Shown here: one piece after another, positions 2,498-15,279 of the stretch
Position numbering within the stretch: the first letter of the stretch is position 1
How the letters are laid out: every line of letters begins with the position of its first letter
Source of the DNA: a virus
Taxonomy: Duplodnaviria > Heunggongvirae > Uroviricota > Caudoviricetes
IMG/VR virus record: IMGVR_UViG_2778261541_000010
Location: 1-30,311 of that record
DNA length: 30,311 nt
Reading direction: 5' to 3' (one strand)
Program-made: the position numbers and the translations under genes
The notes under the pieces: generated by a model
Seen by the model: the letters and a program-made list of their open reading frames with translations, nothing else
Database searches by the model: none
Told to the model about the DNA's origin: nothing

Positions 2498-2746
2498 TCA
2501 TGCAGCGTTGCTCACAGGACGATATACACGTTGCTGAACAGGAGGTTTTTTACCTTGGAACTCTGCCGGGCTTGCTGCCTGACGTTCATCAAGCCAACGC
2601 TCAACTTCGTCACGGTTCCATGCGCAGCGTTTGTCAGTGATATACCAGCGTTTAGGAAATTCACCTGCGCGCTCCATACGGTCGATAGTGCTCCATGACA
2701 GTGGCACCACCGCCAGGAGTTCCTTCTTACCTAATGCACCTTTCAT
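2498..2746 (-). CDS. AlpA-family (prophage CP4-57 regulatory protein-like) HTH regulator/excisionase-like protein
   Basis: LSWSTIDRMERAGEFPKRWYITDKRCAWNRDEVERWLDER resembles the AlpA/MerR-like phage regulator fold; GAGAGG RBS 5 nt upstream. Confidence 0.7.
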   Translation of the reverse strand: MKGALGKKELLAVVPLSWSTIDRMERAGEFPKRWYITDKRCAWNRDEVERWLDERQAASPAEFQGKKPPVQQRVYRPVSNAA

Positions 2747-4798: not shown

Positions 4799-5833
4799 TC
4801 AATATTTGATATACGCGTCCTGCACTTTGCCGCCAGCGATAGCCAACATTGCTTTCTGCGCGAATTCTTCGGGAATGCCTTGGGCTATCAGATCTGCGAT
4901 TACTCTGCGGTTAACGGTACGGCGATGCTCTTTATCCGCAGCTCGGCGCGCTTCTTCGTCGGCGATACGCTTCTGTTCTTCAATGCGGGCTTTTTCTGCC
5001 TCCTCTTGGCGTCGGCGTTCCTCGGCAACGGCTTCTTCTTTTTCGCGTCGTGCACGCTGCTCTGCTTCAATTCGCTGACGTTCTGCTACTTCAGCACGTG
5101 CTTTCTCTTCCGCCGCTAGGCGTGCCGCAGCATCAATTTCAGCTTTCGCTTTTTGTTCAGCTTCGAGCCTGGCCTGTTCAGCAGCTTCCCGGCGGATATT
5201 CTCTTCTCGCTCAATGCGCGCTTTTTCCTCCGCTTCTTTGCGAAGTCTCTCCAGCTCAGCGGCTTCATGCTCGCGTTTTTGAGCTACTGCGAGTGATTCT
5301 TCCAGTTTCTGGATGGTTGAATCCTTGGCTACTCCAGCTTCTGCTGCGTACTCCTGCCAACTCTCATCAAGTGCTACTGATTTAGCCTCTTGAATTCGTT
5401 CCTGAATATCAGTTGATGGCAAGTAGTTTCCGGAGAGATCGATCACGTCAGCCAGTGCTCGCAAATTTGTCAGGCGTTGTTGCAGTGCTTCAGTGCGTAA
5501 TTTCTCAGCATTTTCCCACTCGGTGAGTGGGCGGCGTACTTCATCACGAAGCCGATCGCATTCGGTTACGAAGCGTCGTAACTCTGCTTCAACTACTTTC
5601 GGCTGTTCTTTCAGGCGTTTCAGATAATCACGTCCTGGTTTTTCTACCGCTGTTTTACTTCTTGAAACCTTCGCAGCCAGAGATGCAATGCGCTTTCTGC
5701 CTTTGTCTGTGCTAATGTCAGGCACTTCATTAACACCTTCACGGATCTGCTCGAGAAACTTTTCCAGTCCTTTTTCAACGTAAATTCTTGGTGCCATATC
5801 TGGTGTGATTTCGATGATTGATAATTCACTCAT
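4799..5833 (-). CDS. Coiled-coil, E/A/R/K-rich phage protein (TolA-like low complexity)
   Basis: 344-aa ORF with a long repetitive charged helical region (EAEQKAKAEIDAAARLAAEEKARAE...); first large gene of the leftward operon. Confidence 0.6.
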   Translation of the reverse strand: MSELSIIEITPDMAPRIYVEKGLEKFLEQIREGVNEVPDISTDKGRKRIASLAAKVSRSKTAVEKPGRDYLKRLKEQPKVVEAELRRFVTECDRLRDEVRRPLTEWENAEKLRTEALQQRLTNLRALADVIDLSGNYLPSTDIQERIQEAKSVALDESWQEYAAEAGVAKDSTIQKLEESLAVAQKREHEAAELERLRKEAEEKARIEREENIRREAAEQARLEAEQKAKAEIDAAARLAAEEKARAEVAERQRIEAEQRARREKEEAVAEERRRQEEAEKARIEEQKRIADEEARRAADKEHRRTVNRRVIADLIAQGIPEEFAQKAMLAIAGGKVQDAYIKY

Positions 5834-5991
5834 TTGCTAACCTCCTCCCATATCTCGTTATCGTTGGCCACATCGCGAGCTTCTTTGCTGACGAAAGCCC
5901 ACTTAATGCCTTCCTGTAAGGTGCGGAACTTCCAGCTCATGAATCCGCATGCAGTAACGCAGTACCAACCGTTGATGATTTTCCACTGCAT
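5830..5991 (-). CDS. Small ORF (53 aa) missing from the ORF track; first gene downstream of the leftward early promoter
   Basis: My translation: MQWKIINGWYCVTACGFMSWKFRTLQEGIKWAFVSKEARDVANDNEIWEEVSK; GAGG 9 nt upstream of ATG; TGA overlaps the ATG of the next gene (ATGA). Confidence 0.35.
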   Translation of the reverse strand: MQWKIINGWYCVTACGFMSWKFRTLQEGIKWAFVSKEARDVANDNEIWEEVSK

Positions 5992-6010
5992 AACTTGTTA
6001 CCTCGGTCTG

Positions 6011-6025
6011 TTACCGTTGAGGTAA
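6011..6025. promoter_or_regulatory. Operator: perfect 15-bp palindrome TTACCGTTGAGGTAA overlapping the -10 of the leftward early promoter
   Basis: TTACC-N5-GGTAA; 62 bp centre-to-centre from the 6073 site. Confidence 0.7.
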
Positions 6026-6053
6026 TAATTATGCGTATCTGGTTTGATGTCAA
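6025..6053 (-). promoter_or_regulatory. Leftward early promoter (PL-like)
   Basis: Minus-strand TTGACA (6053-6048) followed 14-17 nt later by CATAAT/AATTAT; flanked by two operator palindromes. Confidence 0.5.
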
Positions 6054-6072
6054 TAGGTATGAGTTAAAAAAA

Positions 6073-6087
6073 TTACCCATCAGGTAA
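6073..6087. promoter_or_regulatory. Operator: TTACCCATCAGGTAA
   Basis: Perfect TTACC-N5-GGTAA palindrome between the repressor terminator and the leftward promoter. Confidence 0.7.
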
Positions 6088-6097
6088 TCGCACAGGC

Positions 6098-6123
6098 AAT
6101 AAAAAAGCCGCCATGAGGCGGCT
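6098..6123 (-). terminator. Intrinsic terminator of the repressor gene
   Basis: Minus-strand hairpin AGCCGCC-TCAT-GGCGGCT followed by TTTTTATT; 22 nt downstream of the repressor stop. Confidence 0.7.
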
Positions 6124-6144
6124 TACTTACTGAAAAATATGATT

Positions 6145-6729
6145 TTATTGTTTGTTTTTTTCGTTCTGGCTGATGACAAATTCAATGTAACTTTCGATCT
6201 TTGCCTTCTCTGTTTCAGGTAACAATGCGTAGCGCGAGCGGTCATAGTTGATGGTCGCAGGGTCGTGCGGGTGAATCAGTAATTCATAGCCGTGACGCCC
6301 GAATGCGGATGCAACATTCTCCAGGGTGGAAATGGAAACACTGACCTCATTGTTTAACAGGCGGCTGATTGTCACCTGGGCGACGCCGGATGCGCGGTGA
6401 AGTTTTCCCTGCGTTGAAAGGTCGCGGCTTTCGCTCATCCAGCGTTCTAGGTTGTGAGCCGCCAGCTGACCAATGTCGCTTGGGCCGACAGGCTGAAAAC
6501 CTTCCTGAGAAAGCGAGCGATCGATATCAAGCCAGTTACGGGGTTTATTGGCGGCAGCTTCAATTTTTCGCGCAACCTGGTCGCCGATAACCTTCTTGCC
6601 AAGAGCCCAGCGGTTTACCAGATTTGCCTGAGTTCCAAGTTTTTCTGCCATCCGCGTCTGAACACCATTGAATTCACGGTCGATCAAGTCGTTGAGATTT
6701 TGCCTGCGGACGTCCTGGATACTTTTCAT
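6145..6729 (-). CDS. Phage repressor with two XRE-type HTH domains in tandem (CI-like function)
   Basis: Two HTH segments (MAEKLGTQANLVNRWALGKK and ASGVAQVTISRLLNNEVSVS); divergent from a cro-like gene across an operator-rich intergenic region; own terminator downstream. Confidence 0.8.
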   Translation of the reverse strand: MKSIQDVRRQNLNDLIDREFNGVQTRMAEKLGTQANLVNRWALGKKVIGDQVARKIEAAANKPRNWLDIDRSLSQEGFQPVGPSDIGQLAAHNLERWMSESRDLSTQGKLHRASGVAQVTISRLLNNEVSVSISTLENVASAFGRHGYELLIHPHDPATINYDRSRYALLPETEKAKIESYIEFVISQNEKNKQ

Positions 6730-6784: not shown

Positions 6785-6799
6785 TTACCCAATAGGTAA
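6785..6799. promoter_or_regulatory. Operator O1 of the immunity region: TTACCCAATAGGTAA
   Basis: Perfect palindrome between divergent repressor and cro genes. Confidence 0.7.
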
Positions 6800-6801
6800 A
6801 T

Positions 6802-6816
6802 GCACCCCATAGGTAA
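6802..6816. promoter_or_regulatory. Degenerate operator O2: GCACCCCATAGGTAA
   Basis: Right half-site perfect, left half 3/5; 17 bp from O1. Confidence 0.45.
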
Positions 6817-6829
6817 CTATCCTTGATTT

Positions 6830-6858
6830 TTGTTACCTTATGGGTGAATATTTATTAT
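6830..6858 (+). promoter_or_regulatory. Rightward early promoter driving cro (PR-like)
   Basis: TTGTTA-17 bp-TATTAT, about 25 nt upstream of the cro ATG. Confidence 0.5.
6833..6847. promoter_or_regulatory. Operator O3: TTACCTTATGGGTGA (one mismatch), overlapping the cro promoter
   Basis: Overlaps -35 TTGTTA (6830-6835) of a promoter with -10 TATTAT (6853-6858), 17-bp spacer. Confidence 0.55.
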
Positions 6859-6883
6859 CTGAAATAAATATCAGGCAATAGCT

Positions 6884-7114
6884 ATGAGCGATAACGGACA
6901 TTTCGATTTCAAAAAGCACTGGCTTGCACTTACTCCGGATGAGCGTGAAGCCTTCGCACAGGAAGCCGGAACGACGAGTCACTATATCCAGACTCACTTA
7001 ACAGGTAAGCGCAAAATGCCAGGTAAGGTATTGATGAATGGGCTTTTTAAAGCCTGTAAAACAAGACAATGGCTGCGCTCAAAAGCAGAACTGGCATACT
7101 TCTTCTACTCATGA
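6884..7114 (+). CDS. Cro-like small HTH regulator
   Basis: 76-aa ORF divergent from the repressor; HTH-like LTPDEREAFAQEAGTTSHYIQTHLTGKR; promoter and operators immediately upstream; terminator downstream. Confidence 0.6.
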   Translation: MSDNGHFDFKKHWLALTPDEREAFAQEAGTTSHYIQTHLTGKRKMPGKVLMNGLFKACKTRQWLRSKAELAYFFYS

Positions 7115-7136
7115 TATCCAGCCACAACCCTCTGTA

Positions 7137-7158
7137 GACCGCCATCCGGCGGTCTTTT
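7137..7158 (+). terminator. Intrinsic terminator immediately after cro (tR1-like)
   Basis: GACCGCC-ATCC-GGCGGTC followed by TTTTCAT. Confidence 0.6.
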
Positions 7159-7169
7159 CATATCTATTC

Positions 7170-7184
7170 GCACCTCAAAGGTAA
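7170..7184. promoter_or_regulatory. Degenerate operator-like site GCACCTCAAAGGTAA
   Basis: Same GCACC-N5-GGTAA variant as the 6802 site; lies between the cro terminator and the zinc-ribbon gene. Confidence 0.35.
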
Positions 7185-7264
7185 TAAAAAACCAAATCTG
7201 GTTGATCTTTTTTTTGTGTCAGCACAAAATAACCGTAATCCCAATACTAATAACAGGGCTTACC

Positions 7265-7465
7265 ATGGAAATCATTACACGTATTGATGCCGCAAAGCGC
7301 GGACTTAAACGCTACTACACCGGAAAACCATGTAAGCACGGACATGACAGTGAACGCTGGGTTTACAACGGACACTGTGTTGAGTGCACCATGGAATCAA
7401 ACCGTCGCATCAGGGCAGAGATTAAGCAGATCATGATTAATTCCTCCCCACAACATTCAAGCTGA
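7265..7465 (+). CDS. Small zinc-ribbon protein (C-x-H...C-x2-C), occupying the cII-like position
   Basis: YYTGKPCKHGHDSERWVYNGHCVEC motif; start trimmed to the ATG at 7265 rather than the track start at 7202. Confidence 0.5.
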   Translation: MEIITRIDAAKRGLKRYYTGKPCKHGHDSERWVYNGHCVECTMESNRRIRAEIKQIMINSSPQHSS

Positions 7466-7480
7466 TAGCGGAGATTAATC

Positions 7481-8278
7481 ATGAGCAGACATGCAACAGA
7501 TTGGGCCTGGGAGACAGATCCAGGGAGCTCGTCATTAAAGCTCATACTGCTCTCGATGGCTGACAGAGCCGATGAATATAACCTCTGCTACCCCAGCATA
7601 GAACGCCTCGTTAAAGACACTTGCCTGAATAAAAAAACCGTGCAGGCCGGACTTATATCGCTCATGAAAATGGGGCTTATTTCAGATACCGGAGAGAGAA
7701 AGGGAGCGACGAAAAGAGTGCGGGTTTTCTCTCTTAATATAACCAAAAACGGGAACATTAAAGGCAACCGGGAAGGGAGGAATGTTCCCGAAAACGGTAA
7801 TGTTCCCGAAAACGGGATGTTGAATGATCCCAAAAACGGGATGTTGAATGATCCCAAAAACGGGATCCAGAACCAGTCATATAACCAGTCATTTAACCAA
7901 GAGAGGGAGAGCAGGACAAAAACCGGGGATTCTGTGCCTCATGACCCCGGCGCAAACAACGCCGTGATGAATAACTTTGTTCCTCCTGGTGGGCCAGGGC
8001 AATTAGGCAAATTTGTCATGCATGAACAATGGCAACCATCAGATGACTTTCTTCGGAAAAGCTCATTGCAGGGGATCTACCTGGACAGTCTGCCAACGGC
8101 ACAGGAACTTGCAGAGTTCAGAATTTACTGGATGGCTGAGGGTAAGGCATACCATCAGGCACAGTGGGAGCAGAAGCTGGCAAGGCGGCTGCAGATTAGC
8201 AGACAGAAGCAATCAACATTACCTGATAACAACGTTCCGCACTGGAACAGCCCTGAAGCATGGGAGGATTTCTTGTGA
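7481..8278 (+). CDS. Replication initiator (lambda O-like) with iterons inside the coding sequence
   Basis: N-terminal HTH-like region, internal peptide repeats NVPENG/MLNDPKNG encoded by DNA iterons, C-terminal region typical of initiator/primosome proteins; GGAG RBS; followed by a P-like gene with GTGA overlap. Confidence 0.7.
   Translation: MSRHATDWAWETDPGSSSLKLILLSMADRADEYNLCYPSIERLVKDTCLNKKTVQAGLISLMKMGLISDTGERKGATKRVRVFSLNITKNGNIKGNREGRNVPENGNVPENGMLNDPKNGMLNDPKNGIQNQSYNQSFNQERESRTKTGDSVPHDPGANNAVMNNFVPPGGPGQLGKFVMHEQWQPSDDFLRKSSLQGIYLDSLPTAQELAEFRIYWMAEGKAYHQAQWEQKLARRLQISRQKQSTLPDNNVPHWNSPEAWEDFL
7741..7900. repeat. Iteron cluster (putative origin of replication) inside the O-like gene
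   Basis: Tandem 18-bp repeat AATGTTCCCGAAAACGG(T/G) x2 (7781-7816), tandem 24-bp repeat ATGTTGAATGATCCCAAAAACGGG x2 (7817-7864), shared core AAAACGGG in 5 copies including an inverted partial copy at 7746-7758, then AACCAGTCAT x2 (7871-7892). Confidence 0.7.
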
Positions 8279-9060
8279 ACAACGTTTTTACCGCGATACA
8301 AAACCGTGACGGAGAAGCCCTTTCTCGCATGTCAGGTTATGAGCATCAGTACACCAACAATGACAACGTGGTGAACATGTCAGCAGAGAGGCTTGTTGAT
8401 GCCCTTTTCAAACAGCTGAAACAACTGTTTCCGGCGGCAGTGGTAACCAACCTGAAGACGCCAGAGCAGGAAGTTGCTGCAAAACAGCAGTGGATTGCTG
8501 CGTTTGCCGAAGGGGGGATCCGAACCCGTGAACAGGTTTCTGCTGGTATGCGCCACGCCCGCGCCAGTGAATCTCCGTTCTGGCCGTCGCCTGGGCAATT
8601 TATCAAGTGGTGTAAAGACAGCAAGATGGTTCTTGGCGTCACCATTGACGATGTGATGGCGGAGTTTCACCGGTACAGCAAGGAAAAAAGTTTATATCCT
8701 GGTGGTCCCGAAAGATTCCCGTGGCGACATCCGGTTATGTACTGGGTCGTATGTGATACCCGCCGTGCAATGTATCAGCGCCAGCTTAGCGAGATTGAGG
8801 TTGAGAAACACGCGCGCAGGCTGCTCGATGATTGGGCGAAAAAGGTGGCTTCCGGACAGCAGATACCCGATCCGGTGATCAGCATACAGGCAAAGCCAGA
8901 ACCCATGAGTACGCCTCCTGACACTGGGAGAGACGTTTACCATCCACCAGGGCGAAGTTTCGGGTGCATGCCTAACGCCGCCACCCTGGGGGGAATAACA
9001 CCGGCGCAGTGGCTGATAGAGGAATACAGGCGGGGAAAGGCGGCAGGATTTATCAAGTAA
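8275..9060 (+). CDS. Replication protein P-like helicase loader
   Basis: LFPAAVVTNLK...QQWIAAFAEGGIRTREQVSAGMRHARASESPFWPSPGQFIKWCK parallels lambda P (TFPASLANRD...RRQWVLAFRENGITTMEQVNAGMRVARRQNRPFLPSPGQFVAWCR); GTG 8275 preceded by GGGAGG, ATG 8260 is the alternative start. Confidence 0.8.
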   Translation: MNNVFTAIQNRDGEALSRMSGYEHQYTNNDNVVNMSAERLVDALFKQLKQLFPAAVVTNLKTPEQEVAAKQQWIAAFAEGGIRTREQVSAGMRHARASESPFWPSPGQFIKWCKDSKMVLGVTIDDVMAEFHRYSKEKSLYPGGPERFPWRHPVMYWVVCDTRRAMYQRQLSEIEVEKHARRLLDDWAKKVASGQQIPDPVISIQAKPEPMSTPPDTGRDVYHPPGRSFGCMPNAATLGGITPAQWLIEEYRRGKAAGFIK

Positions 9061-9065
9061 TACCA

Positions 9066-9085
9066 GCGCGATAGCGCATTTTTTT
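9066..9085 (+). terminator. Weak intrinsic terminator-like element after the P-like gene
   Basis: Short GCGC-GATA-GCGC stem followed by ATTTTTTT. Confidence 0.35.
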
Positions 9086-9097
9086 ACGCCTACATGA

Positions 9098-9112
9098 TTA
9101 CCTGTTGGGTAA
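9098..9112. promoter_or_regulatory. Operator: TTACCTGTTGGGTAA
   Basis: Perfect palindrome upstream of the -35 of the 9.1-kb promoter. Confidence 0.7.
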
Positions 9113-9131
9113 CAAAATGTTCTAATCTCTA

Positions 9132-9160
9132 TTGATTCCATGTCTTATGTGGTTTTTAAT
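9132..9160 (+). promoter_or_regulatory. Promoter for the accessory (nin-like) operon
   Basis: TTGATT (9132-9137)-17 bp-TTTAAT (9155-9160); flanked by operators at 9098 and 9160. Confidence 0.5.
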
Positions 9161-9174
9161 TACCTAAGGGGTAA
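9160..9174. promoter_or_regulatory. Operator: TTACCTAAGGGGTAA overlapping the -10/+1 region and the ribosome-binding site of the DUF1064 gene
   Basis: Perfect palindrome ending 4 nt before the ATG at 9178; 62 bp from the 9098 site. Confidence 0.7.
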
Positions 9175-9177
9175 ATC

Positions 9178-11218: not shown

Positions 11219-11492
11219 CCTGCAACTTGCCGTCAAAGGTGAATACTTCGATGCCATGATTCGCGGGGAGAAAACGGAAGAGTATCGCCTGTGTAATGAC
11301 TACTGGAATAAGCGAATTATGTTCCGGGAGTATGACCGCCTGATTATCACAAAGGGATATCCGAAGCGCGACGATTCCAGCCGCAGAATTGACGTCCCGT
11401 ATGACGGATATGAAATCAAGACAATCACACATCCGCACTTCGGCGATAAACCGGTAAATGTGTTCGCGATAAAGGTAAATATTGATGGCTAA
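11211..11492 (+). CDS. Hypothetical protein, possibly ASCH/PUA-like fold
   Basis: 93-aa ORF (GTG start) overlapping the upstream stop; weak resemblance to ASCH-domain phage proteins. Confidence 0.4.
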   Translation: MANLQLAVKGEYFDAMIRGEKTEEYRLCNDYWNKRIMFREYDRLIITKGYPKRDDSSRRIDVPYDGYEIKTITHPHFGDKPVNVFAIKVNIDG

Positions 11493-11823
11493 ATCAGCAG
11501 CAGAGCGCAAAGCCGCTCAGAGAGCCAGACAAGCTGCATCTGGTGTGCGTAAGCTGGAAATTGTGCTTGATGCTCAGGAAATTGAAATGCTGGAGCGTAA
11601 CTGTGCCACGCGTCGCCCCGGGCGTGCGCCTTACGAATTTGGTGAGTATATAGCGTTACTGATCCGCCAGGATGATGCACGCGTGCGCGGGCGTATAAAA
11701 TCGATCAGCAGAAAACGTTGCGGTAAGTGCGGCGAGAGAGTTCCAGTTAATTCATGCCCGTGTAATGGTGACTCGCAATGCTGGGTGACCAAAGGCTGGC
11801 ATGAAACGAAATTAATAGTGTGA
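11485..11823 (+). CDS. Putative ribbon-helix-helix DNA-binding protein with C-terminal Cys-rich zinc-ribbon motif; candidate late-gene regulator
   Basis: RKLEIVLDAQEIEMLERN (beta-strand then helix, RHH-like) and CGKCG...CPCNGDSQC; last regulator-like gene before the terminase block. Confidence 0.45.
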   Translation: MAKSAAERKAAQRARQAASGVRKLEIVLDAQEIEMLERNCATRRPGRAPYEFGEYIALLIRQDDARVRGRIKSISRKRCGKCGERVPVNSCPCNGDSQCWVTKGWHETKLIV

Positions 11824-12053: not shown

Positions 12054-12058
12054 ATACT

Positions 12059-12084
12059 GCCGCCAACTATGGCGGCTTTATTTT
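12059..12084 (+). terminator. Intrinsic terminator between the early/accessory region and the terminase genes
   Basis: GCCGCC-AACTAT-GGCGGC followed by TTTATTTT. Confidence 0.7.
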
Positions 12085-12095
12085 GCATGGTACTA

Positions 12096-12110
12096 TTACC
12101 ACAACGGTAA
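12096..12110. promoter_or_regulatory. Operator: TTACCACAACGGTAA, immediately upstream of the small terminase start
   Basis: Perfect palindrome; a degenerate overlapping repeat follows at 12114-12128 (TTACCACGGTGGTTA). Confidence 0.6.
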
Positions 12111-12127
12111 CTATTACCACGGTGGTT

Positions 12128-12724
12128 ATGATGCCTGCTGAACCTAAAACCTATAAACGCAAATCAACGCAATTTAAGCCACTAACAGCAATGCAGGAGG
12201 CTTATTGCCAGTCATACATCAAAACGCCTGAAAACCAGACTCAGGCAGCGATTAACGCAGGATTCTCCCCAAATACAGCGGCAGTTAAAGCCAGTGTCAT
12301 GATGCGCGATGAACGCATTCAAAAACGGATTGCCGAGCTGATGGAGGAGCGCAACAAACGAATGCGCGTCAGTGCTGATTACGTTCTCATGCGTCTGGTG
12401 GAGATCGACCAGATGGACGTGATCGACATCCTCAACGACGATGGGAGCCTTAAGCCAATCCGCGAGTGGCCGAAAATTTGGCGCACTACGCTTAGTGGCT
12501 TTGATCTGTCATCGACCATCATGAACATGAACGAGGATTCGATAGAGACAATCCTCAAAAAAATTAAATGGCCTGATAAGGTGAAGAACCTCGAACTGAT
12601 TGGTAAGCACGTCGACGTCAACGCATTCAAAGAACGCCTGGATGTTAATGTGAATGTGACAATTGCTGATCGCATAGCGGCAGCCAGGAAGAGACTGAAA
12701 GAACGTCAGGATGGCAATCAGTGA
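12128..12724 (+). CDS. Terminase small subunit
   Basis: TAMQEAYCQSYIKTPENQTQAAINAGFSP matches the HTH of phage small terminases; start trimmed to ATG 12128 (track start 12050 runs through a terminator and repeats). Confidence 0.7.
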   Translation: MMPAEPKTYKRKSTQFKPLTAMQEAYCQSYIKTPENQTQAAINAGFSPNTAAVKASVMMRDERIQKRIAELMEERNKRMRVSADYVLMRLVEIDQMDVIDILNDDGSLKPIREWPKIWRTTLSGFDLSSTIMNMNEDSIETILKKIKWPDKVKNLELIGKHVDVNAFKERLDVNVNVTIADRIAAARKRLKERQDGNQ

Positions 12725-14286: not shown

Positions 14287-14667
14287 TTATTGCTCGCTTA
14301 ACTTCTGCTTCAGCAAGTAACCTTCGAGCATCCAGATTTTGTTTACAGCATTCTGCCGGGCAATCTTCCGACCAATTTCTGCATCAAAATTTTCCGGGCT
14401 TGCACAGGCACTCTCTCCGGTGACGGTGAAGCCATTCTTCAGCACCAGTACGCAGAAAGTGAGCAACTTCAATGGTGATAAATCACGATCGCCTTCTTCT
14501 GGTTTTTCTCTGCCACAATATTCGTTGCTGGAAATGGCACCATTTCGTCCATCATAAGCAGTAAAGTAATGCTCGCTTTTAATCACATCTTCGATGTGCT
14601 GCGGGGTGATTCGCGGTGCCGTTTTGCCTTTCTCAACGATTTCTTTTTCGATTTGCTGGTCGTTCAT
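14287..14667 (-). CDS. Reverse-oriented moron gene, likely DUF1398 (YbcV/YdfO-like) family
   Basis: 126-aa ORF on the opposite strand to all flanking structural genes; AAGGTGAG RBS; intrinsic terminators on both sides; family assignment from memory of YbcV/YdfO-like prophage proteins. Confidence 0.5.
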   Translation of the reverse strand: MNDQQIEKEIVEKGKTAPRITPQHIEDVIKSEHYFTAYDGRNGAISSNEYCGREKPEEGDRDLSPLKLLTFCVLVLKNGFTVTGESACASPENFDAEIGRKIARQNAVNKIWMLEGYLLKQKLSEQ

Positions 14668-14678
14668 AATCTCACCTT

Positions 14679-14702
14679 AAAAAAATGCCCGGTTCGCCGG
14701 GC
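14679..14702 (-). terminator. Intrinsic terminator directly upstream of the moron gene RBS (minus strand)
   Basis: Minus-strand GCCCGG-CGAA-CCGGGC followed by ATTTTTTT, then AAGGTGAG and the ATG. Confidence 0.65.
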
Positions 14703-14780
14703 GAACTGGAAGCAATGAGTTATGCCTTCCGTGGCTGTACTGGTTTACAGCATGAAGTCATCGCAATGGCGTCCTGCTGT

Positions 14781-14865: not shown

Positions 14866-14942
14866 TGGCGTGGCATGCAGGATTCGAACCTGCGACCAAC
14901 CGCTTAGAAGGCGGTTGCTCTGTCCGACTGAGCTAATGCCAC
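14866..14942 (-). tRNA. tRNA-Arg (anticodon UCU), phage-encoded, with encoded CCA
   Basis: Reverse complement folds as a 77-nt cloverleaf: acceptor GTGGCAT/ATGCCAC, D-arm GCTC-AGTCGGACA-GAGC, anticodon arm ACCGC-CTTCTAA-GCGGT (anticodon TCT), T-arm GCAGG-TTCGAAT-CCTGC, discriminator G, CCA. Confidence 0.9.
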
Positions 14943-15264: not shown

Positions 15265-15279
15265 TTACCTGAAAGGTAA
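15265..15279. promoter_or_regulatory. Operator: TTACCTGAAAGGTAA upstream of the virion-gene operon
   Basis: Perfect palindrome about 90 bp upstream of the first structural gene. Confidence 0.65.

Follow-up and report, generated by a model that had tools for sequence, protein, structure and literature searches.

Between positions 6000 and 9200, the window (the whole stretch of DNA that was analyzed, 30,311 nucleotides in length) shares 97–98% identity with Escherichia phage phiV10 and its relatives, and at least 80% of its first 25 kb is present in 390 of 5426 complete E. coli genomes. By these sequence matches, the window is a phiV10/epsilon15-like (Uetakevirus) prophage of E. coli. Its repressor, Rep, matches the repressor of Salmonella phage SPC32H over the full length of the protein (PDB 5D50, E = 4.1e-42), and the cro-like gene gp39, whose product is 57–100% identical among relatives, is transcribed divergently from rep. 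A GC-rich hairpin follows gp39, and gp40 and two replication genes lie beyond it. The genes and the adjoining features are as follows.

6145–6729, minus strand: Rep, prophage repressor of 194 aa (Pfam HTH_3, E = 1.2e-9)
6785–6847, no strand assigned: OR region, three Rep operators overlapping PR (operator search with TTACC-N5-GGTAA)
6830–6858, plus strand: predicted PR-like promoter upstream of gp39, TTGTTA, 17 nt, TATTAT (promoter scan, 9/12; divergent rep/gp39 spacer)
6884–7114, plus strand: gp39, cro-like small HTH protein of 76 aa (PHROG 35 “transcriptional repressor,” E = 5.6e-13)
7136–7155, plus strand: GC-rich stem-loop AGACCGCC-ATCC-GGCGGTCT, terminator hairpin of the gp39 transcript (fold, conservation, phiV10 annotation)
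7156–7169, plus strand: interrupted T-tract TTTCATATCTATTC (tail weight 2.9–3.6)
7265–9060, plus strand: replication operon of gp40, a DnaT/HTH_36 initiator, and a lambda-P family protein (Pfam, PHROG 1081, tandem repeats)
7265–7465, plus strand: gp40, Cys/His-rich protein of 66 aa (ATG start at 7265)
7481–8278, plus strand: DnaT/HTH_36 initiator with internal iterons (Pfam)
8260–9060, plus strand: lambda-P family protein (Pfam, E = 1.5e-56)

An earlier interpretation made from the letters alone (hereafter the sequence-only reading) had placed zinc-ribbon, O-like, and P-like genes downstream of the hairpin, and the family searches agree: the Cys/His-rich gp40, the initiator, and the lambda-P family protein occupy these places. 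Iteron-like tandem repeats lie inside the initiator gene at 7781–7866, extending to 7899 in a second listing, with periods of 18 (1.9 copies), 24 (2.8 copies), and 12 (2.4 copies), and from their sequence they likely constitute the replication origin. The phiV10 initiator gene is ~30 nt longer than that of the window, presumably reflecting a different repeat copy number. A longer form of gp40 starting at the TTG of position 7202 (an 87-aa ORF) was considered and rejected, given the T7–T9 run variation in E. coli prophages and the indels among relatives.

Within the OR region, the operator at 6785–6799 is perfect, that at 6802–6816 is a GCACC variant, and that at 6833–6847 carries one mismatch. 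Among the sequences carrying gp39, one stands apart: NZ_RAVW01000927.1 (L010, 408 bp, labeled Corallococcus exercitus; coverage 0.75) has a gp39 that is 100% identical to that of the window. This record is almost certainly contamination in a myxobacterial assembly.

The hairpin and T-tract after gp39

The hairpin lies 21 nt past the gp39 stop codon, on the sense strand and in noncoding DNA. Its stem comprises 8 pairs, 6 of which are G-C, and is capped by a tetraloop, where the threshold for a terminator stem was at least 5 pairs and a loop of 3–8 nt. The computed energy is −15.0 kcal/mol (z = −4.95), and none of 200 shuffled sequences was as stable. The same hairpin is intact in both the MFE and the centroid folds of the entire predicted PR transcript (6865–7170), and neither a competing structure nor an antiterminator fold is predicted in that transcript. 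The sequence directly after the hairpin is TTTCATATCT; read on the minus strand, the hairpin is followed by no T-tract. The span of 7137–7158 given in the sequence-only reading covers TTTT and the stem in its 7-bp version. As a class, terminator-like matches show no enrichment (18 versus 15.1 expected, in 15 kb), so a class-level match by itself is not significant, and we accept this hairpin as real because it is conserved.

Base pairing was counted in 16 versions of the hairpin, representing E. coli alleles together with phages and prophages of eight other host genera. A scripted hand alignment was used because MAFFT misregistered the hairpin arms of the Klebsiella and Salmonella sequences. 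The six core pairs are formed in 94 of 96 cells. When all eight pairs are considered, 113 of 128 cells are paired, compared to a shuffle mean of 106.7, and none of 2000 shuffles reached 113. Compensatory changes are seen at three pairs, namely pair 3 (G-C, but A-T in Scandinavium), pair 6 (A-T, G·T, or G-C), and pair 7 (G-C, T-A, or A-T), and the loop varies in both sequence and length (ATCC, ACCC, TTCT, TCAT, ACCCCCA, and others). On this comparative sequence evidence, the element is a real, conserved stem-loop of the terminator type.

The hairpin is already known through the annotation of phiV10, whose record (DQ126339.2) lists the same element at 33078–33100, in a region that is 99% identical, as a putative rho-independent terminator between PhiV10p41 (gp39) and PhiV10p42 (gp40). 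That record annotates no promoter or operator after the terminator and does not state the route by which the replication genes are expressed. The ends of two IMG/VR contigs (L044 and L086) coincide exactly with the hairpin and consist of C/G/T homopolymer runs, suggestive of a sequencing or assembly artifact.

The sequence-only reading had described a canonical hairpin plus T-tract. The hairpin part of this description stands, given its energy and covariation, but the tail is less canonical than stated: four consecutive T nucleotides (TTTT, including the closing pair) are followed by CATATCT. The tail weight is 2.9–3.6, whereas the rep and pre-terS terminators of the window score 3.9. Among relatives the tail is variable, ranging from TTTTTTATT to TCCTTCCTGC. 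Tail weights of ~4.5 are found in the Buttiauxella (TTTTTTATT) and Scandinavium (TTTTCTTTT) relatives. The T-tract is absent from the Salmonella, Klebsiella, and Citrobacter relatives (tail weight 1.3–1.6), and the Klebsiella and Salmonella tails read TCCTGCC or TCCTTCC. Because the T-tract of the window is only moderate, termination at the gp39 hairpin is probably partial in the E. coli phages, and some read-through is likely.

A predicted promoter among putative Rep operators

The most conserved bases of the spacer between gp39 and gp40 sit downstream of the hairpin and outside it. The features found there, along with two other regions of the window that resemble this spacer in layout, are listed below.

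6000–6126, minus strand: cassette of the rep terminator and PL (operator search; fold, −21.1 kcal/mol; pattern match)
7170–7185, no strand assigned: operator A, GCACC-TCAAA-GGTAAT (left half degenerate, right half nearly invariant)
7190–7203, no strand assigned: palindrome AACC-N6-GGTT overlapping the −35 hexamer ([nearly] invariant columns C81, C82, T86, and G89–T92 of the spacer alignment)
7202–7207, plus strand: predicted −35 hexamer TTGATC (column identity of GGTTGATC given below)
7225–7230, plus strand: predicted −10 hexamer CAAAAT (column identity given below)
7236–7264, plus strand: predicted start at ~7236–7238 and short leader with an AGGG Shine–Dalgarno sequence at 7255–7258 (from the −10 position and the sequence)
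9062–9175, plus strand: cassette after the P-like gene (operator search, pattern match, phiV10 and epsilon15 annotation)

The gp39–gp40 spacer was aligned from 15 relatives, and mean column identity was calculated for each segment. The values are 0.97 for GGTAAT (7180–7185), 0.99 for GGTTGATC (7200–7207), and 0.98 for CAAAAT (7225–7230), and those for the hairpin loop, the tail, and the leader are 0.57, 0.69, and 0.60, respectively. Spacing was assessed in 17 relatives whose hosts are E. coli, Enterobacter, Erwinia, Pseudocitrobacter, Kluyvera, Buttiauxella, Scandinavium, Klebsiella, Salmonella, and Citrobacter. TTGAT(C/A) and nAAAAT are 16–17 nt apart in 17 of 17, and GGTAA begins 22 nt ahead of the −35 hexamer (23 nt in one). 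In the window, TTGATC-17-CAAAAT matches the consensus at 8 of 12 positions and is the sole sigma-70-like match of at least 8/12 on the plus strand of the spacer; CAAAAT carries A at position 2 and T at position 6, and the spacing falls within the 16–18 nt of sigma-70 promoters. A match of 8/12 is too weak to call a promoter from one sequence alone.

Allelic variation is consistent with a promoter. Among 80 IMG/VR E. coli prophages, the spacer T run differs in length (T7, T8, or T9), and TTGATA occurs in some alleles, a shift toward the −35 consensus. The T7–T9 variation excludes a coding role for the spacer, and it would be tolerable for a promoter. Moreover, the promoter block is kept alike in relatives with a strong tail (Buttiauxella and Scandinavium, ~4.5) and in those that lack a T-tract (Salmonella and Klebsiella, 1.3–1.6). 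This independence from terminator strength argues that a promoter, not read-through, is the general route to expression of the replication genes. Thus, a sigma-70-type promoter for gp40 and the replication genes at 7202–7230 is the most likely interpretation of these sequence comparisons, from which we infer promoter activity. The sequence-only reading had named exactly these hexamers among its options, and the comparative evidence now favors that choice. The same reading had the replication genes apparently sharing the cro transcript, for which we find no support, given the conserved predicted promoter in between.

The conserved hexamers could also serve as protein-binding sites instead of contacts for RNA polymerase. 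Several further readings of the spacer were considered and set aside. The promoter-like match on the minus strand (7138–7111) is unconserved outside E. coli and was taken as chance. Strings resembling TTATCCAAA, which might suggest an IHF site or DnaA box, are present in some relatives and unconserved. A role as a Dam site for the GATC of the −35 hexamer is weakened by the TTGATA alleles. The epsilon15 and phiV10 records contain no promoter or repressor-site annotation in the gp39–gp40 spacer. A literature search, with the SPC32H and epsilon15 papers outside its reach, found no 5′-end, reporter, or footprint data; the ZX5 paper reports no transcript mapping, and a search on Uetakevirus transcriptomics yielded nothing relevant.

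The predicted promoter also coincides with a boundary between modules. Homology to the window breaks off at 7207, where TTGATC ends, in ZX5, TL-2011b, HEMP4, and many IMG/VR prophages, and the alternative replication module that follows keeps nAAAAT (CAAAAT) at 16 nt. Two alternative E. coli replication modules are joined exactly at TTGATC (loci L002, L019, L022, L027, and others). Since homology ends at this base, the immunity module ends and the replication module begins at the predicted 7202 promoter, which makes the −35 hexamer a tidy case of mosaic exchange at a regulatory boundary. The gp40 homologue of the second module starts with TTG and is unannotated in ZX5.

Rep operators (TTACC-N5-GGTAA, at most 2 mismatches) number 28 in the window, compared to 8.3 ± 3.3 expected, and perfect copies begin at 6011, 6073, 6785, 9098, 9160, 12096, and 15265, placed at unit boundaries. 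Operator A (7170–7184) has 2 mismatches, both in its left half, and many E. coli alleles read GTACC there, leaving one mismatch. Its GCACC left half is shared with the OR site at 6802. Downstream of the −35 and −10 hexamers there is no full operator, only a half-site at 7230–7234 (TAACC/TTACC) that opens with the last T of the CAAAAT hexamer. Because the left half of operator A is degenerate and the downstream site is only a half-site, Rep control at the 7202 promoter may be weak or absent. The palindrome AACC-N6-GGTT, whose spacing is one base longer than that of the Rep operator, is kept in all relatives, and gp39 is a candidate to bind it.

The two comparable regions give this arrangement its context. 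On the minus strand, the PL cassette carries the rep terminator (6124–6105), operators at 6087–6073 and 6025–6011, a −35 hexamer TTGACA (6053–6048), and a −10 hexamer AATTAT (6030–6025). With its consensus −35 sequence, the status of PL as a promoter is not in doubt, and judged by sequence, the 7202–7230 site is a weaker paralogue. The cassette after the P-like gene carries a weak hairpin GCGC-GATA-GCGC plus T7 (9066–9085), operators at 9098–9112 and 9160–9174, a −35 hexamer TTGATT (9132–9137), and a −10 hexamer TTTAAT (9155–9160). The hairpin at 9066–9085 is annotated as a terminator in the phiV10 record, and the first of the two operators is annotated as a repressor site in the epsilon15 record.

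All three regions (6126–6000, 7134–7240, and 9062–9175) follow a common layout: a hairpin plus T run, 14–20 nt, an operator, 17–19 nt, TTGAnn, 17 nt, and a −10 hexamer that shares its final T with the start of TTACC. The pattern GGTAA-N17..19-TTGA-N22..23-AT(T/A)ACC has three matches in the window (PL, the 7202 site, and 9108–9164), with 0.00 expected, a statistic that is partly circular because the pattern was taken from these same sites. The complete epsilon15 genome, ~70% identical here, provides an independent check, and the pattern occurs there only at the three orthologous places. These matches suggest a third copy of the Rep-flanked promoter cassette, so far unannotated, in the spacer before the replication genes.

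Other Rep operators and hairpins lie farther to the right. In the 12055–12135 region, two adjacent Rep operators, one perfect (12096–12110) and one with a single mismatch (12114–12128), come after the pre-terS terminator (GCCGCC-AACTAT-GGCGGC plus TTTATTTTG, −16.2 kcal/mol) and abut the terS start codon at 12131. By eye, no sigma-70-like −35 and −10 pair was seen between these elements, and the cassette model does not account for the start of the late genes. A perfect Rep operator, TTACCTGAAAGGTAA, is located at 15265–15279 in the long noncoding stretch before a 68-aa gene (15370) and the portal operon, and corresponds to the annotated epsilon15 repressor site at 2931–2947.

In the 14287–14750 region, the only LexA-box-like sequence of the window (CTGT-N8-ACAG, 14735–14750) is upstream of a 126-aa minus-strand ORF, and the interval from this box to the start codon contains a terminator-like hairpin (GCCCGG-CGAA-CCGGGC plus ATTTTTTT, 14702–14687). 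Pfam places the ORF in the N4 Gp49/Sf6 gp66 family (E = 3.4e-35), and its PDB match to the anti-CBASS protein Acb4 is marginal (E = 0.007); a comparison with the Ant chain of 5D50 gave no sequence match.

The search for antitermination components

An Rfam search of the whole window at E ≤ 1 returned tRNA only, and the window carries a phage-borne tRNA-Arg (anticodon TCT; 14866–14942, minus strand; 73.3 bits). Sequences resembling boxA (CGCTCTTTA-like) number 4, compared to 6.0 expected, and none is on the PR or PL transcripts. An N-like protein opening the PL operon is absent; the first PL gene (5830–5991) encodes a nonbasic 53-aa protein with no family annotation. Searches of the early proteins against Pfam and PHROGs revealed no N-like, Q-like, or other antiterminator family, and NCBIfam assigned no family at all to the ten early proteins tested. 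The hairpin after gp39 is not a boxB-type site, because its loop is unconserved in sequence and length among relatives. The predicted leaders of ~19 nt (PR), ~27 nt (PL), and ~28 nt (7202 promoter) are too short for an HK022-type put RNA (~70 nt, two-stem), and no Rfam match was obtained. These searches bear out the observation in the sequence-only reading that neither an N-like gene nor a nut-like box can be recognized. The search for boxA- and boxB-like elements that it had proposed returned no candidate on the early transcripts and no conserved boxB loop, and we found no evidence for the unrecognized antitermination mechanism that it had offered as an alternative.

Two proteins deserve mention. 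A 113-aa protein (11482–11823, plus strand) is assigned to PHROG 536 “transcriptional regulator” and has no Pfam, NCBIfam, or PDB match. It has an arginine/alanine-rich N terminus (MAKSAAERKAAQRARQAASG) and a Cys-rich C terminus (CGKCG...CPC), is encoded two genes ahead of the pre-terS terminator, and is a candidate late regulator. An AlpA-family protein (2498–2746, minus strand) adjoins the integration genes. This location makes an excisionase-type regulator more likely than an antiterminator, and we set the latter role aside.

Proposed organization and related systems

We consider it likely that transcription of gp39 ends at a terminator and that the replication genes are then transcribed from their own Rep-controlled promoter. 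The early right arm would be a chain of short units rather than one lambda-style operon: a hairpin terminator would close each unit, and transcription of each would restart from its own promoter, flanked by Rep operators. Unit 1 would run from PR through gp39 to the hairpin at 7136–7155, which would stop or strongly attenuate this transcript, insulate it from the replication unit, and probably shield the 3′ end of the gp39 transcript. Unit 2, comprising gp40 and the two replication genes, would begin ~75 nt beyond the hairpin, with a −35 hexamer at 7202–7207, a −10 hexamer at 7225–7230, and a start near 7237. Rep most likely represses this promoter via 7170–7185 and the half-site at 7230–7234, as it would at PL and at the 9132 promoter. 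Both Rep binding across 7170–7234 and the efficiency of termination are judged here from sequence. Upon inactivation of Rep, all promoters would become active together, removing any need for antitermination of the N, Q, or put type. The whole chain would read PR–gp39–terminator; P7202–gp40–replication genes–terminator; P9132–accessory genes–terminator (12059); and then two operators before terS.

If instead the terminator were simply leaky, the replication genes would be expressed mainly by read-through from PR, the hairpin would set the ratio of cro-like to replication products, and the conserved downstream block would be a regulator site. The short, interrupted tail favors this account, as do its loss in the Salmonella, Klebsiella, and Citrobacter relatives, where read-through should be substantial, and the mere 8/12 match of the downstream promoter. 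Yet the Buttiauxella and Scandinavium relatives have canonical terminators and the same gene order, so read-through is not a general solution. Also, the conserved bases take the form of two hexamers at 16–17 nt with a TTACC junction like that at the near-consensus PL. We regard exclusive reliance on read-through as unlikely. The leaky terminator suggested by the sequence-only reading is retained in that some read-through probably occurs, but not as the general route, for which the promoter is favored.

Slightly less probable is a conditional barrier formed jointly by the hairpin and the Rep operator, at which bound Rep would halt or delay RNA polymerase at a terminator that is itself weak. The hairpin core and GGTAA are 25–27 nt apart in 17 diverged relatives though flank lengths vary, and an operator begins 14–20 nt after the stem at four junctions in the window (6105, 7155, 9077, and 12076). 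If this were true, immunity would extend to elongation in addition to initiation, in the manner of a stoperator, and removal of Rep by the antirepressor would ease the stop.

We are more doubtful still that the hairpin is chiefly an element for stability or processing of the RNA 3′ end, or contributes to Rho-dependent termination in an untranslated, C-rich region. Covariation preserves the stem even where no T-tract follows, and in all relatives the untranslated sequence around the hairpin is C-rich and G-poor, a composition typical of Rho loading sites. However, T runs directly follow the stem in the window and in the Enterobacter, Buttiauxella, and Scandinavium relatives, as in intrinsic terminators. 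Such a role would in any case be compatible with termination and would leave expression of the downstream genes unchanged. The account to which we assign the lowest probability, and which we consider very unlikely, is that a protein or RNA of an unrecognized antitermination system allows PR transcription to pass the hairpin. Several early proteins lack an assigned function, and the 113-aa protein and the AlpA-family protein might be named as candidates, but these are encoded beyond other terminators. The missing N-like PL protein and boxA, the unconserved loop, the short leaders, and the silence of Rfam all speak against such a system, and a conserved promoter would make it needless.

Under the favored model of a terminator followed by a separate promoter, Uetakevirus prophages probably run their early genes as separately repressed units, without a lambda-style antitermination cascade. 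The conserved predicted promoter would make antitermination unnecessary for the replication genes. The sequence-only reading had treated a terminator ahead of the replication genes as a puzzle, while allowing that a promoter at 7202–7230 would render it mundane; most likely, the arrangement is indeed ordinary and the puzzle dissolves. The finding has little significance beyond annotation, although the cassette should help in engineering phiV10-type reporter phages and in interpreting prophage transcriptomes.

The position of the hairpin resembles that of the lambda cro-nutR-tR1 region, where transcription also stops immediately past the cro-like gene and ahead of the replication genes, among them one for a lambda-P family protein. 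In lambda, termination at tR1 depends on Rho, and N, acting at boxA and boxB, overcomes it. In contrast, the window has no N-like gene and no boxA, its hairpin loop is unconserved, and a conserved predicted promoter follows. A second comparison concerns the stoperators of mycobacteriophage L5, which Brown et al. 1997 reportedly described as intergenic repressor sites that block elongation. As in L5, many repressor sites are spread at gene-cluster boundaries, in the window directly after terminators. However, the L5 sites are asymmetric and orientation-dependent, whereas those of the window are palindromic and flank promoters.

In promoter-coupled terminators, the 3′ end is at most 35 bp from the next start, most often 10 bp, and the elements overlap (Fletcher et al., bioRxiv 10.64898/2026.08.19.745784). 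The window likewise has a terminator and the next promoter in one short intergenic region between tandem related genes. We did not assign it to this class, as the predicted 3′ end (~7160–7165) and start (~7237) are ~75 bp apart and the elements do not overlap.

A further comparison is with epsilon15 (AY150271.2) and the Rep/Ant switch of SPC32H (PDB 5D50), which share the repressor family (E = 4e-42) and the operator ATTACC-N5-GGTAAT. Repressor sites are predicted across the epsilon15 genome at PL, downstream of the replication gene, and ahead of both terS and the portal operon. In the epsilon15 gp39–gp40 spacer neither a site nor a promoter is annotated, and the corresponding site of the window consists of a degenerate operator and a half-site. 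Rep binds DNA as a tetramer (PMC9638917). The proposed chain of separately repressed units would fit both this tetrameric binding and the genome-wide distribution of the epsilon15 repressor sites.
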